DNA of 64,000 nucleotides from a plasmid: the sequence record NZ_AP019725.1. One strand, given 5' to 3'. The position numbers were made by a program, and so were the translations under genes. This document shows positions 40,232 through 47,560 of this stretch, piece by piece (positions within the stretch are counted from its first letter, which is position 1; each line of letters begins with the position of its first letter). The notes beneath the pieces were generated by a model. The model saw only the letters and a list, made by a program, of their open reading frames with translations, did not search any database and was not told where the DNA came from.

Positions 40232-41464
40232 ATGCGAAGTACATTCAAGGTCTTATTCTACGTGAAGAAAGGCAGTGCAAAGCCCAACGGCAACCTGCCA
40301 CTGATGTGCCGCCTTACGGTGGACGGAGAGATTAAGCAGTTCAGTTGCAAAATGGAAGTTCCACCCCATTTGTGGGATGTGAAGAACAACCGTGCTTCGG
40401 GCAAGAGTGCCGAAGCGCAGAGAATCAACCGTGCGGTTGACAAGATTCGGGTGGAGGTGAACCGCCGCTACCAAGAACTGATGCAGACAGACGGATATGT
40501 GACCGCTGCCAAACTGAAAGATGCCTATCTCGGTATCGGTATCAAGCAGGAAACCTTGCTGAAACTCTTTGAGCAGCACAATGCGGAGTTTGCAAAGAAA
40601 GTCGGACACAGCCGTGCCAAAGGAACATTCCAACGGTACATAACCGTCTGCAAGCATATTCGGGAGTTCCTGCCCCATACATACAAGCGTGAGGATATTC
40701 CCCTCAAAGAGTTAAACCTCACGTTCATCAACGACTTCGAGTATTTCCTGCGCACGGTGAAGAAATGCCGCACTAATACCATTTGGGGCTATATGATTGT
40801 GTTGAAGCACATCATTTCCATAGCGAGAAATGACGGTCGTCTGCCGTTCAATCCCTTTGCAGGGTATATCAACTCTCCCGAAAGCGTGGACAGGGGGTAT
40901 ATCACGAAAGAGGAGATACACACCATGATGAATACCGAGATGCCCGACAAGACCCACGAGCTTGTGAGGGACCTGTTTCTGTTTTCGGTGTTCACGGGGT
41001 TGGCATATTCCGATGTCAAGAACCTCACCACCGACAACCTGCAAACTTTCTTTGACGGTAACTTATGGATTATCACCCGAAGAAAGAAGACCAACACCGA
41101 ATCGAATATCCGTCTGTTGGACGTTCCCCGAAAGATTATAGAGAAGTATAAGGGGATGGCAAAGGACAATAAGGTTTTCCCCATGCCAAGTAATACGACC
41201 TGCAACAAAAAGCTGAAAGCCATAGCCGATTTGTGCGGTATAAAGACACATTTAACATATCATGTCGCAAGACATTCGGCAGCAACTACCATACTGTTAT
41301 CCAACGGAGTACCCATTGAAACCGTCAGCCGCCTGTTGGGGCATACCAACATAAAGACCACTCAAATCTACGCGAAGATAACCGCCCAAAAGATAAGTCA
41401 GGACTTGGAACTGTTGTCCGACAAGTTGGGGGATATGGAGAAAAGCATTTGCAGTGCCATTTGA
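40232..41464 (+). CDS. int: Bacteroides CTn/NBU-type tyrosine integrase (IntN1/IntDOT-like)
   Basis: N-terminus MRSTFKVLFYVKKGSAKPNGNLPLMCRLTVDGEIKQFSCK matches the characteristic N-terminus of this integrase family. The C-terminus carries HVARHSAATTILL...GHTNIKTTQIYAKI. Confidence 0.85.
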   Translation: MRSTFKVLFYVKKGSAKPNGNLPLMCRLTVDGEIKQFSCKMEVPPHLWDVKNNRASGKSAEAQRINRAVDKIRVEVNRRYQELMQTDGYVTAAKLKDAYLGIGIKQETLLKLFEQHNAEFAKKVGHSRAKGTFQRYITVCKHIREFLPHTYKREDIPLKELNLTFINDFEYFLRTVKKCRTNTIWGYMIVLKHIISIARNDGRLPFNPFAGYINSPESVDRGYITKEEIHTMMNTEMPDKTHELVRDLFLFSVFTGLAYSDVKNLTTDNLQTFFDGNLWIITRRKKTNTESNIRLLDVPRKIIEKYKGMAKDNKVFPMPSNTTCNKKLKAIADLCGIKTHLTYHVARHSAATTILLSNGVPIETVSRLLGHTNIKTTQIYAKITAQKISQDLELLSDKLGDMEKSICSAI

Positions 41465-41486
41465 TAACCCATAAAGAAGAATACAG

Positions 41487-41876
41487 ATGAAAGAGAAACG
41501 AAGCATCATCACGATGGACGGACAGGGCAACATCGCCCTGCCGACCGATACAGTCTCCATTGCCATGACCGAGTGGGAACTCTGCGAGTTGTTCGGGGTT
41601 ATCGCCCCAACAATCCGAGCAGGGATAAAGGCTCTTTGTAAAAGCGGTGTTTTGAGGGAATATGAGACAAAGCATACCATCAAACTGTCGGACAAACGCA
41701 GCATGGAGGTTTACAGTCTTGAAGCCATCATCGCCCTTGCTTTCCGCATCAACACATTCGGAGCGGAACAGGTTCGCAGAGCCATACTTGAAAGACTGTA
41801 CTTGCGAAAAGAAAAAACAGGCATCTTCTTTTCGCTGAACATCACTGATACGGCAAATCCGAAATACTTTGCATAG
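41487..41876 (+). CDS. hypothetical small protein (NBU Orf2-like position)
   Basis: 129-aa ORF placed directly after int, as in NBU-type elements. Confidence 0.45.
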   Translation: MKEKRSIITMDGQGNIALPTDTVSIAMTEWELCELFGVIAPTIRAGIKALCKSGVLREYETKHTIKLSDKRSMEVYSLEAIIALAFRINTFGAEQVRRAILERLYLRKEKTGIFFSLNITDTANPKYFA

Positions 41877-42076
41877 GCGTATTGCCATTCACACATACTC
41901 ACGCACCCGAAGAAGCATCTGTTTTCAGCTCTGTTTCTTCGGATTTTTTGTTTTTACAGCCCCGAACAGCCCCGAAGTATTTTTTGCTGCGTTCTGCTGT
42001 GATTTGCGTATCAACTTATCCGACAGTTGATTATACTTTTGTAGCTGACATTTTTTCAAACTTAAATCATTGGAAT

Positions 42077-43318
42077 ATGGAAGCAAACAAAGTAAATGAC
42101 AGCCACCGACCGCCCACAGATGGCGGCATGGCAAAGGAAGAGTTTATCCGTGTCGGCACAACGCTCTACAAGATTGTGGAGCAGCCAAGACTGAACGGAG
42201 GGTATGTAAGGAAGCGCATCGCATGGAACAACGAGACCCTGCGCCAAGACTATGGCAAGGACTACATCGGCAGCGTACCCAAGTATGACGGCTTCTGCAC
42301 CGTACCCGAACACGTCAGCTATCAGCCTGTAATCGGCAAGTTCCTTAACCTCTACGAGCCGATACCCCACCAACCGCAAGAGGGTGATTTCCCCTCTGTC
42401 CGCTCATTGGTGGAACATATCTTCGGGGAGCAATACGAGTTGGGAATGGACTATCTTCAACTGCTCTACCTGCAACCCATTCAGAAGTTGCCCATCCTGC
42501 TGTTGGTGTCGGAGGAGCGCAACACAGGCAAAAGTACATTCCTCAATTTTCTGAAAGCCCTGTTTCAGAATAACGTGACATTCAACACCAACGAGGATTT
42601 CCGCAGCCAGTTCAATTCCGACTGGGCTGGGAAACTCCTTATCGTGGTGGACGAAGTATTGCTGAGCCGCCGGGAGGACAGCGAGCGGTTGAAGAACCTG
42701 AGCACGGCACTATCCTACAAGGTGGAAGCCAAAGGCAAAGACCGTGACGAAATTGCGTTCTTCGCCAAATTCGTGCTGTGTTCAAACAACGAGTACCTGC
42801 CTGTCATCATTGATGCAGGTGAAACCCGTTATTGGGTGCGCAAGATAGACCGCTTGCAGTCGGATGATACCGACTTCCTGCAAAAACTGAAAGCGGAGAT
42901 ACCTGCTTTTCTCCACCATTTACAGCATAGGCAGCTATCCACCGAAAAGAAAAGCCGTATGTGGTTCACGCCCTCACTACTGCATACCGAAGCCTTGCAG
43001 AAGATTATCCGCAGCAACCGCAACAGATTGGAGATAGAGATGCACGAGCTTATCCTTGACATTATGGAAAGTGTAGGCACGGACACTTTCTCTTTTGACT
43101 GCAACGATATTTTTCTTTTGTTGCGGTATTCACAGGCAAAAGTGGAGAAACATCAAGTACGCAGGGTATTGAAAGAGTGTTGGAAACTTAATCCTGCACC
43201 CAACACGCTTACCTATACCACCTATCAGTTGGACTATACCCGTGACTGTCACTATTCGCCCATGCGGAAGACAGGACGGTTCTACACCGTGACAAAATCG
43301 TTTTTGGAAACACTATGA
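42077..43318 (+). CDS. P-loop NTPase (primase-associated/D5-like, NBU Orf3-like)
   Basis: Walker A motif (VSEERNTGKSTFLNFL) and Walker B (LLIVVDEV). Confidence 0.6.
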   Translation: MEANKVNDSHRPPTDGGMAKEEFIRVGTTLYKIVEQPRLNGGYVRKRIAWNNETLRQDYGKDYIGSVPKYDGFCTVPEHVSYQPVIGKFLNLYEPIPHQPQEGDFPSVRSLVEHIFGEQYELGMDYLQLLYLQPIQKLPILLLVSEERNTGKSTFLNFLKALFQNNVTFNTNEDFRSQFNSDWAGKLLIVVDEVLLSRREDSERLKNLSTALSYKVEAKGKDRDEIAFFAKFVLCSNNEYLPVIIDAGETRYWVRKIDRLQSDDTDFLQKLKAEIPAFLHHLQHRQLSTEKKSRMWFTPSLLHTEALQKIIRSNRNRLEIEMHELILDIMESVGTDTFSFDCNDIFLLLRYSQAKVEKHQVRRVLKECWKLNPAPNTLTYTTYQLDYTRDCHYSPMRKTGRFYTVTKSFLETL

Positions 43319-46136: not shown

Positions 46137-46403
46137 TTGTACTTTTGCACTCGGATTGAGGCAACTCTATCCAAGACATAAGAAAAAGAAGCGTTATGCT
46201 TTCTTGTAAGTCGAGAACGTAGGAAATTCAAGACACTGCACAAGGATGGCATAGTGGTTCTCACGCATATAGCGTGGGCTGCTATACTACATTCGTGCAT
46301 TTAGGTTTCCTACGACCTTCGACTTAGAATGTTGCATTGGTAGTCCACGTTTCTGCATTTGAGCATCCGCTTCTTTGGGCTAAGAAGCAAAAAAGAAAAC
46401 TAT

Positions 46404-47312
46404 ATGAAACAAAAAGTTCCACTATCAAAAATGAACATGACAAAAACGCTATTATCAGTTATGCTTTGTTGCTGTTGCAGCATTATGGCTTTCGGGCAGA
46501 ACATGACCCAAGAAATTGAAAAGATTATCAAAGGGAAGCAAGCGTCTGTCGGGGTAGCAATTATCCATAATGACGATATAATTGCCATTGCCAACGAGGA
46601 CAAATATCCCACTATGAGTGTATTCAAATTCCATATAGCAGTGACAGCTCTGAAAAAAATGGAAGCAGAGAATATTCCGCTGGACAAAATGGTGTATATC
46701 AAACAGAAAGAAATGCTGAAAAACACGTATAGCCCGTTAAGGGATAAATATCCCGACCAAGGGATTCGTATATCTTATAGGGATATAATCAAATACACAG
46801 TATCGATTAGCGACAACAACACATGCGATTGGTTAATAAGGTTTGTTGGTGGTATTGATAAAGTGGACTCCTACATAAAATCTCTTGGGATAAAGGATAT
46901 GAATTTCACGGAGACAGAGGAAAGCATGCATACGGACATTATGTTATGCTACAACAATTGGAGCACACCATTAGCTATTGCGCAATTGCTCAAGAAACTT
47001 CATACAGAAAATATTTTGACAAAAGAGCATTTTGCGTTTTTAGAGACAGCCATGCTTGATTGTGTGTCTGGCAAGAACAAACTAATAGCGGGGTTGCCTA
47101 CCGATATAAAATTTGGGCATAAAACGGGACGTTCTAACCGAACTGCTGATGGCATACAGATAAGCGAGGGAGATGCAGGAGTGATATATCTTCCCAACGG
47201 TGAGAAGTGCTACATTGTCGTTTTGATAAAGGATTCTCGTGAGTCTGATGATGATAACGCCAAAATAATGGCAGATATATCAAATATAGTTTATCGTCAT
47301 TTGAATAAATAA
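46404..47312 (+). CDS. Ambler class A beta-lactamase (Bacteroides CblA/CepA/CfxA family)
   Basis: Signal peptide, then S-x-x-K (MSVFKF), SDN (SISDNN) and KTG (HKTGRS) motifs. Also SPLRDKYPD and the overall colinearity typical of Bacteroides class A cephalosporinases. Confidence 0.85.
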   Translation: MKQKVPLSKMNMTKTLLSVMLCCCCSIMAFGQNMTQEIEKIIKGKQASVGVAIIHNDDIIAIANEDKYPTMSVFKFHIAVTALKKMEAENIPLDKMVYIKQKEMLKNTYSPLRDKYPDQGIRISYRDIIKYTVSISDNNTCDWLIRFVGGIDKVDSYIKSLGIKDMNFTETEESMHTDIMLCYNNWSTPLAIAQLLKKLHTENILTKEHFAFLETAMLDCVSGKNKLIAGLPTDIKFGHKTGRSNRTADGIQISEGDAGVIYLPNGEKCYIVVLIKDSRESDDDNAKIMADISNIVYRHLNK

Positions 47313-47330
47313 AAATCCAATTGTAATGAA

Positions 47331-47368
47331 TCAAAGTCTCTAACATATATTTGTTGGAGACTTTTTGT
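47331..47368 (+). terminator. rho-independent terminator after the beta-lactamase gene
   Basis: Stem CAAAGTCTC / GAGACTTTT followed by a T-run. Confidence 0.6.
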
Positions 47369-47560
47369 TAAATTTCATATCGGAAAAGTGTGCGTTTCAA
47401 TAAAAAGTAATAACTTTGCAAATGAAAGAGTTATTTGACAGTATAGCACCGCAAAACGCTGAAAATAGCACAGTTGCTAACTCGTTACCACTGTTTCTCA
47501 AATACTCAGTTAAATGTTTATTCTTCAAACGGTTATATTAAACCGTTGAAAATCTAAAAT

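Follow-up and report, generated by a model that had tools for sequence, protein, structure and literature searches.

Which element carries the class A beta-lactamase gene found on the plasmid of sequence record NZ_AP019725.1, and how did it come to lie where it does? A first-pass annotation of the stretch analysed here (the window, 64,000 nucleotides, to which all coordinates refer) had read the segment 40232-47400 as an NBU-like mobilizable transposon with a CblA/CepA-type beta-lactamase as its cargo. We find that the segment 39963-47561 corresponds very probably to the blaMUN-1 island, which is very widespread, measures 7.6 kb and has been published (PMC10989005); it is an integrative mobilizable element found in gut Bacteroidales. 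The gene, the element and its plasmid context are already published, and the locus is not a new resistance vehicle. Beyond PMC10989005, the present analysis defines the exact ends and the TAAAATA core, proves one empty site, shows the nesting within an insertion sequence (IS) and links the element to a wider island family. The island and its parts are as follows.

39963-47561, plus strand: complete blaMUN-1 integrative mobilizable island, 7,599 bp with 45.4% guanine-cytosine (GC) content, both TAAAATA copies counted
39963-39969, plus strand: left attachment core (attL) TAAAATA; the repeat here extends to the 10-bp TAAAATAAAC (39963-39972)
39970-40231, plus strand: left arm, with a stem-loop, candidate arm-type repeats and motifs upstream of the integrase gene int (putative functions)
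40232-41464, plus strand: tyrosine integrase, 410 amino acids (aa); PF17293 56.3, PF13102 66.2 and PF00589 74.6 bits
41487-41876, plus strand: small open reading frame (ORF) of 129 aa, candidate helix-turn-helix (HTH) DNA-binding protein and possible directionality factor or regulator
42077-43318, plus strand: P-loop protein with DUF5906 (Pfam, 84.5 bits)
43593-44570, plus strand: CHC2 zinc-ribbon/Toprim primase, 325 aa; Toprim_2 60.5 bits, dnaG domain model
44609-44703, plus strand: candidate origin of transfer (oriT), an 18-nt inverted repeat with smaller adjoining repeats
44787-46091, plus strand: MobV (Mob_Pre) relaxase, 434 aa; NCBIfam MobV 202.8 bits (cut-off 100), Pfam Mob_Pre 77.7 bits
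46092-47414, plus strand: cargo module of post-mob hairpin, candidate promoter motif, blaMUN-1 and post-bla hairpin
46404-47312, plus strand: blaMUN-1, subclass A2 extended-spectrum class A beta-lactamase, by NCBIfam match and exact NCBI match
47415-47554, plus strand: right arm, about 85% conserved in relatives with other cargo
47555-47561, plus strand: right attachment core (attR) TAAAATA; the 10-bp TAAAATAAAC spans 47555-47564

The exact relaxase sequence retrieved 10 further copies of the island, lying in 10 different chromosomal contexts, with five of them in one genome and two in another. When the flanks are aligned with these copies, identity starts at 39963 (TAAAATAAACAGATAGC...) and stops at 47561 (...GAAAATCTAAAATA), and the beta-lactamase gene lies well within these boundaries. 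Over 7,599 bp the window copy is 100.000% identical to L009, L010 and L011 and at least 99.93% identical to the remaining copies. Measured against the 10-copy comparison, the first-pass span holds all of the genes and falls short of both true ends. Its gene list (integrase, small ORF, P-loop protein, primase, MobV relaxase and beta-lactamase, all on the plus strand) is real, and its outline of an integrative mobilizable element with a beta-lactamase after mob also stands, with integrase, relaxase, an oriT-like repeat and cargo all present.

The published island is 7.6 kb long with 45.4% GC, encodes an integrase, an HTH protein, a helicase, a primase, a plasmid recombination enzyme and blaMUN-1, and was found in a clinical E. 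coli isolate, in Sutterella and in 27 Bacteroidales species, with one copy, on a B. uniformis plasmid, having an IS256 transposase and a site-specific integrase as its neighbours (PMC10989005). Our element agrees with it in size, GC content, six genes in equal order and an identical MUN-1 protein, as well as in its multi-copy, multi-species distribution and in having a plasmid copy beside an IS256 transposase and an integrase; we detected no difference between the two. The island integrase and relaxase are also exact multispecies NCBI entries, the integrase being listed as 'MULTISPECIES: site-specific integrase [Pseudomonadati]', and MUN-1 likewise has a MULTISPECIES [Pseudomonadati] label. 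The island was absent from PLSDB and from the complete E. coli RefSeq genomes (a set that excludes the Munster E. coli genome), where only an 80% relative and the IS matched, and among the species-representative genomes seven loci matched, mostly diverged or partial.

The beta-lactamase itself is MUN-1 and stands outside the CblA and CepA families. Its product scores 689.7 bits against the NCBIfam blaMUN model (NF045651, cut-off 640), covering model positions 1-290 of 290, against 264.5 bits for CblA (cut-off 625), 254.2 for CepA (cut-off 660) and 148.4 for CfxA (cut-off 625). By exact-sequence look-up the 302-aa product is letter-perfect to the NCBI entry 'MUN family extended-spectrum class A beta-lactamase MUN-1', a sequence recorded on about 1,000 contigs, and MUN-1 readings of 291 and 293 aa are catalogued besides. 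The class A motifs SxxK, SDN and KTG named at first pass were all located (SVFK at residue 72, SDN at 136, KTG at 240). The enzyme was characterised by Gschwind et al. (Antimicrob Agents Chemother 2024; PMC10989005) as a subclass A2 extended-spectrum beta-lactamase (ESBL) with 43.0% identity to TLA-1 and 42.1% to CepA, and blaMUN-1 has since been reported in Desulfovibrio falkowii. The idea of a newly transferable form of a chromosomal resistance gene does not survive these matches: the product is identical to a catalogued mobile allele, and the whole element is the published island.

How does the island choose its sites? The junctions compared were those of the window copy, the 10 further copies and diverged relatives. 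Left junctions have the order flank/TAAAATA/AACA... in 20 of 20 distinct cases, and right junctions the order ...GAAAATC/TAAAATA/flank in 17 of 18. The odd right junction (contig L001, ~4841-4860) reads GAAAATC-GTAAATA, its matching left junction lying beyond the contig. TAAAATA stands at both island ends as a 7-bp direct repeat, and the lack of any duplication beyond this shared core is the signature of conservative site-specific recombination by a tyrosine integrase. Twelve reconstructed targets have only TAAAATA in common, together with a bias towards adenine-thymine (AT) pairs and a preference for A at +1, and 19 different, unrelated non-tRNA insertion sites share TAAAATA and nothing else. 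A single genome can contain up to five near-identical copies, and overall these occupy many AT-rich sites that are unrelated to one another.

'Low GC' at the borders was the sole common feature reported for insertions of the island (PMC10989005). The window alone contains 32 TAAAATA sites in its 64 kb, a frequency that explains both the multi-copy, apparently random distribution and the published 'low-GC borders'. We regard it as an evenly balanced possibility that the TAAAATA crossover core, common to a wider family of islands with int, a 130-aa ORF and interchangeable cargo, is a rule of site choice that has gone unreported; if true, it would account for the low-GC borders together with the multi-copy, inter-phylum spread left unexplained in PMC10989005. 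The mismatched attR of L001, a single junction, suggests that target-derived bases take part in the crossover, with the first two core positions falling in the overlap region and heterology being tolerated there.

In the window the site used by the island can be read directly, since it lies inside an IS256-family element whose intact form is available elsewhere.

39956-39962, plus strand: GGTAGTG, the 7 bp at the outer tip of the IS left terminal repeat, which the inserted island separates from the rest
47565-48935, minus strand: rest of the IS256-family element, with its transposase at 47656-48870 (minus strand)

The transposase scores 388.3 bits against the NCBIfam IS256 model (cut-off 150), the terminal inverted repeats are present, and an 8-bp target duplication, GGGATAGG, surrounds the IS at 39948-39955 and 48936-48943 (an intact IS copy in L028 has a 9-bp duplication). 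Over 1,381 bp the IS of the window is 100% identical to an intact copy. The intact element in pBuniCL03T12-1 reads GGTAGTG-TAAAATAAAC-TGTGTCAC at this end; the flanks of the island are GGTAGTG on the left and TGTGTCACGC... on the right, and the intact IS has GGTAGTG-TAAAATAAAC-TGTGTCACGC. The left terminal repeat of the IS thus already contained TAAAATAAAC before the island recombined within it, and one empty site is thereby proven. The IS in turn is inserted 14 bp downstream of a recombinase gene of the plasmid backbone. In ten related contigs (L018-L027) this gene is followed by a spacer of ~55 bp and a convergent 216-aa gene, and the spacer (...AGTAGGGGATAGGGGGGGCCTC...) is uninterrupted, carrying neither IS nor island. 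Since the island lies within the IS and the IS within the spacer, the IS was inserted first and the island second.

Several points weigh against an actively moving island that follows the TAAAATA rule. An exact attP junction was sought in viral contigs and in JGI metagenome contigs and none was found, nor was there a match to a gapped pattern in which the core could be any sequence of at most 24 bp. Assemblies rarely capture excised circles, hence these circular-junction negatives are weak. The 7,603-bp contig L029 had been considered as a circular form and was rejected, as it is a collapsed repeat ending at the island termini without true overlap. Excision, nicking and mobilisation of the island are so far predictions. 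The empty site was directly verified in one case only. As for a role of the 129-aa ORF in directionality, its product has no significant match in Pfam, NCBIfam, PHROG or PDB, and a single-sequence AlphaFold (AF2) model reached a confidence (predicted local distance difference test, pLDDT) of 38.6 and was discarded.

The genes themselves are consistent with an integrative mobilizable element. By its domains (Arm-DNA-bind_5, Phage_int_SAM_5 and Phage_integrase in Pfam) the island integrase belongs to the IntCTnDOT type with an N-terminal arm-binding domain, a subgroup that includes the NBU1 and CTnDOT integrases (PMC8138268). Its predicted catalytic tyrosine is Tyr380, and at the position of the Box I arginine it has Ala258, the alignment placing TGL-A258-YSD opposite TGL-R-YSD of the neighbouring recombinase. 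The 129-aa ORF is paired with int in every relative, lying directly after it and being 57-65% identical in L032, L033 and L035; the published annotation of the island calls it HTH crp-type (PMC10989005). The P-loop protein, with a weak TIGR01613 match and weak PHROG 'DNA primase' matches to C-terminal regions, appears to resemble the C-terminal helicase part of P4/D5-type primases. In the primase, the CHC2 zinc ribbon (Zn_ribbon_DnaG) scores 23.3 bits, slightly under the Pfam cut-off of 24.9.

The relaxase carries both MOBV motifs as defined in PMC3105389, HxxR (HIER at residue 21) and HxDExxPHuH (HRDEETPHIH at residue 123), and scores 19.6 bits, under the cut-off, against the MobA/VirD2 Relaxase model. 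The hairpin noted at first pass as an oriT is present as an 18-nt inverted repeat (44623-44640 / 44664-44681), 94% complementary and 106 bp upstream of mob. Its arms are unchanged in L002 (a 91% relative) and L032 (a relative at ~80%), where the loop and surroundings have diverged, and the keeping of the arms while the loop varies supports a functional site such as oriT.

Outside the genes, the left arm has a stem-loop with a T run after it (AAAAGCGTAGCGA...TCGTTACGCTTTT, ~39997-40039), candidate arm-type repeats in common with the right arm and two TAATTTTG motifs upstream of int (at 40168 and 40203), and is conserved in L032 and L033-L041. The main polymorphism among copies lies upstream of int at 40135-40140, where CCAGAAT, CCGGAAT, CCGAAT or CGGGAAT is found; the spot differs even among the five copies of one genome, the assembly of which shows frameshifted flanking genes, and sequencing error at this spot is possible. 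In the cargo module, terminator-like hairpin 46105-46137 follows mob and hairpin 47333-47364 follows bla. The sequence TAnnTTTG is the Bacteroides -7 consensus. A TACTTTTG motif at 46140, after the post-mob hairpin, fits it and is a candidate bla promoter; TAnnTTTG is marginally enriched in the window (84 found, 61.8 expected), which is weak evidence for such a promoter. Another fitting motif, TAACTTTG at 47411-47418, points outward to attR and, speculatively, would face int once the island is circularised. Rfam gave no match within 38000-50000, and generic scans for sigma-70 promoters and terminators stayed at chance level.

The integrase module extends well beyond the MUN island. In L032, a B. 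finegoldii plasmid carrying a relative at ~80%, both ends are retained, as are int, the small ORF and mobV; other genes take the place of the cargo segment 46092-47414, and there is no primase or ATPase. Eight further relatives (L034-L041, int at ~10001-11233) have an integrase 87% identical to that of the island, a 130-aa ORF and the left junction TAAAATA-AACAG; they encode a type I restriction-modification system and have AAA_13 and SLFN/AlbA_2 genes as well, and their first 11 kb showed no relaxase gene. Across the family the cargo comprises the MUN beta-lactamase, type I restriction-modification and putative immunity proteins (DUF2750, SMI1/KNR4). Relatives that share the 87% integrase, the small ORF and the left junction and carry other cargo indicate that the integrase module serves a broader island family.

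Other relatives were seen in passing. In L002, at 1445-1600, a 91% MUN-island variant directly adjoins, by its left end, the right end of another, related element (~76% identical), and the attP-like junction (ATTGAAAATC-TAAAATA-AACAGATAGC) points to a tandem array of two related islands. MUN-like genes of 84% and 75% aa identity occur in L004 (9980-11132) and L006 (8443-9117), contigs binned in Verrucomicrobia and Melainabacteria metagenome-assembled genomes; they could reflect real spread or a binning artefact. L004 has the conserved right arm of the island ending GAAAATC-TAAAATA, in a high-GC context.

What, then, is the second integrase gene, which lies just upstream of the island? The answer comes from the host plasmid, the relevant features of which are these.

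38828/38888-39934, plus strand: tyrosine recombinase of the plasmid backbone, PF13102 and PF00589 only; outside the island
6787-6937: about six tandem 22-bp iterons (ACCTTTCCAGAGGTGAAAGCGT-like), beside a 446-aa ORF (5288-6628, minus strand) with no Pfam match
8285-10842: DUF5712 protein and type IV coupling protein (the latter at 9211-10842)
60218-62647: TraG/VirB4-type P-loop ATPase

The upstream gene does encode a tyrosine integrase, as annotated at first, and its reading as a remnant or hotspot marker does not hold: it is a backbone gene of a conjugative-type plasmid, conserved beside parA. It has no arm-binding domain, keeps the Box I arginine and is 36% identical to the island integrase. 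In the collection searched the gene appears in 1,242 blocks; in the 10 contigs examined, as in pBuniCL06T06-1, it adjoins parA, and all of these are without the island. The circular plasmid pBuniCL06T06-1 matches the backbone at 95% identity, and island-free copies of the backbone occur in contigs of up to 135 kb; pMMCAT was considered as the host plasmid and rejected, as no match of that level was found for it.

A perfect 30-bp inverted repeat, GTGAATTTGGCTGTTAGAGTTCTGTTAGAA, at 23037-23066 and 49652-49681 bounds a 26.6-kb segment, close to one end of which the backbone recombinase gene lies. Related metagenome contigs have this segment in both orientations (6 versus 4), so that either the ArdC cluster or a DUF3575/SSB/Mfa cluster follows the 216-aa gene. 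Judging from the repeat and the two orientations, the backbone recombinase more likely acts as an invertase or resolvase.

The iterons and the 446-aa ORF are probably the plasmid replication origin and initiator, and ArdC is encoded in the window as well. With its own conjugation genes, the host replicon of the island could act as a helper in cis. Two further features of the plasmid are an IS66-family transposase (25641-27227, minus strand), which makes a second IS type, and an imperfect 50-nt inverted repeat (38418-38467 / 38622-38671) in the 28% GC spacer between parA and the backbone recombinase, which could be a partition or recombination site.

On these grounds we propose the following mechanism. 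The IntCTnDOT-type integrase would recombine TAAAATA of the circular form, with an attP predicted to read ...TTGAAAATC-TAAAATA-AACAGATAGC... (...GAAAATC-TAAAATA-AACAGATAGC...), with any target TAAAATA, some mismatch in the overlap being tolerated. Excision from the window would yield the circle plus a healed IS repeat, GGTAGTGTAAAATAAACTGTGTCAC, with the conserved 129-aa HTH-like protein possibly helping to control directionality. The MobV relaxase may then nick at the conserved inverted repeat upstream of mob, while a co-resident conjugative element would supply the mating apparatus, the host plasmid with its coupling protein and TraG/VirB4-type ATPase being a candidate helper. The primase and the DUF5906 ATPase could prime or support synthesis of the complementary strand. 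In this scheme blaMUN-1 would be cargo in a swappable slot between mob and the right arm, read from its own candidate promoter motif, and would give rise to the ESBL phenotype recorded in PMC10989005.

MUN-1 is a functional ESBL, with published minimal inhibitory concentrations of >256 ug/mL for ceftazidime, aztreonam and cefuroxime, and roughly one in four human gut metagenome samples contained its nearest gene-catalogue homolog. Hosts of the gene by now include E. coli, Sutterella and Desulfovibrio, a picture that the window leaves unchanged. Of practical value are the junction signature (GAAAATC-TAAAATA / TAAAATA-AACAGATAGC) and the exact ends, which can be used for tracking insertions and for designing excision assays by polymerase chain reaction, the evidence that the island rides a plasmid with its own conjugation genes, and its reclassification as a MobV, Tn5520-like element and not an NBU.

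Other explanations of the locus have to be weighed against a mobile copy of the blaMUN-1 island. We give practically no credence to the idea that the gene is the chromosomal Bacteroides CblA/CepA cephalosporinase in a transferable form that had gone unrecognised: those two are indeed among the nearest named families after MUN (264 and 254 bits), with 42.1% identity to CepA according to PMC10989005, yet neither score comes near its cut-off (625 and 660), and the protein is exactly MUN-1, already in the NCBI resistance catalogue and already described on this island. That bla was moved by the adjacent IS256-family element, through IS-mediated or composite transposition, and not by the integrase, is highly improbable in spite of an IS256-family transposase only 344 bp downstream of bla, since the IS is present as a single copy, the island interrupts its terminal repeat instead of being flanked by IS copies, and the island has identical ends at 10 other sites without this IS. 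Composite transposition driven by IS256 was rejected on the anatomy, the island being inside the IS repeat.

It is also very unlikely that the upstream integrase (38828-39934) was left over from another integrated element and marks a hotspot of tandem insertion. Two tyrosine recombinase genes do lie 297 bp apart in one orientation, and tandem arrays of related islands occur elsewhere, as in L002, where the right end of another element abuts the island left end; against this, the gene stays beside parA throughout the plasmid family, including pBuniCL06T06-1, the 10 contigs examined have neither IS nor island downstream of it, its product is without an arm-binding domain, the actual target of the island was the IS terminal repeat, and the 30-bp inverted repeat around the 26.6-kb segment found in both orientations suggests an invertase or resolvase role. 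A trapped, immobile fossil is unlikely. It would fit with the fact that no circular junction was found in any collection scanned, but six ORFs, both att cores and both arms are intact, and versions present elsewhere in multiple copies match this one at 100%. Membership in the NBU family proper, meaning an element that inserts specifically at the 3' end of a tRNA gene, encodes a MobN-type relaxase and carries its resistance cargo downstream of mob, is quite unlikely too. The order of int, small ORFs, primase, mob and cargo does resemble that published for NBU1 and NBU2, and the integrase falls in the same broad IntCTnDOT subgroup; what speaks against it are the 19 different non-tRNA sites with only TAAAATA in common and the lack of a tRNA in the window, the MobV relaxase where MobP is listed (PMC5704250), and Ala258 in place of the Box I arginine kept by IntN1 and IntN2.

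Where does the blaMUN-1 island stand among the known mobilizable elements? We placed it by comparing traits with the published descriptions of NBU1, NBU2 and Tn5520, and a search for integrase homologues returned thousands of unnamed relatives of at least 80% identity, with no named NBU or Tn5520 protein among them. NBU1 has an accessory primase gene, prmN1, between int and mob, and in NBU2 linA lies after mob. The island has a similar architecture, its primase, DUF5906 protein and 129-aa ORF lying between int and mob and bla after mob, and it shares with NBU1 and NBU2 an integrase of the IntCTnDOT subgroup and, presumably, dependence on a helper conjugative element. However, NBU1 and NBU2 target the 3' ends of tRNA-Leu and tRNA-Ser, whereas the island hits TAAAATA at unrelated sites, and the 64-kb window has no tRNA at all; their relaxases are MobP (PMC5704250), that of the island is MobV; IntN1 and IntN2 keep the Box I arginine (PMC8138268), while the island integrase has Ala258. 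Of the first-pass label 'NBU-like', the gene order stands, and the non-tRNA target, the MobV relaxase and the missing Box I arginine speak against the rest.

Tn4555, which carries cfxA, is likewise a Bacteroides mobilizable element with a class A (subclass A2) beta-lactamase and several copies per genome, but it has a MobP relaxase, a tnpA targeting gene with two preferred sites, an integrase that retains the Box I arginine, and CfxA as cargo. IntDOT of CTnDOT resembles the island integrase in having an arm-binding domain and a replaced first catalytic arginine, and in an apparent tolerance of overlap mismatches (for the island, at the one junction of L001), while CTnDOT itself is large, self-transmissible and has a target consensus of its own; only the recombinase type is in common. 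Closer agreement is seen with Tn5520 of B. fragilis (BipH integrase, BmpH relaxase), the integrase of which also has no Box I arginine (PMC8138268) and which inserts with low specificity in AT-rich DNA (PMC5704250). Like the island, Tn5520 has a single tyrosine integrase of this kind and a MobV relaxase with oriT directly upstream (a candidate oriT in the island), and its low-specificity AT-rich insertion is matched by island targets that share only TAAAATA within AT-biased flanks. The relative L032 even has a minimal backbone of int, small ORF and mobV, although it still carries cargo. Tn5520 differs in being described as the smallest and the sole cargo-free element of this kind, in contrast to the six genes of the island, which include the DUF5906 ATPase, the primase and bla. 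The island is therefore NBU-like in gene order only, and in its target, relaxase and Box I traits it is closer to Tn5520.

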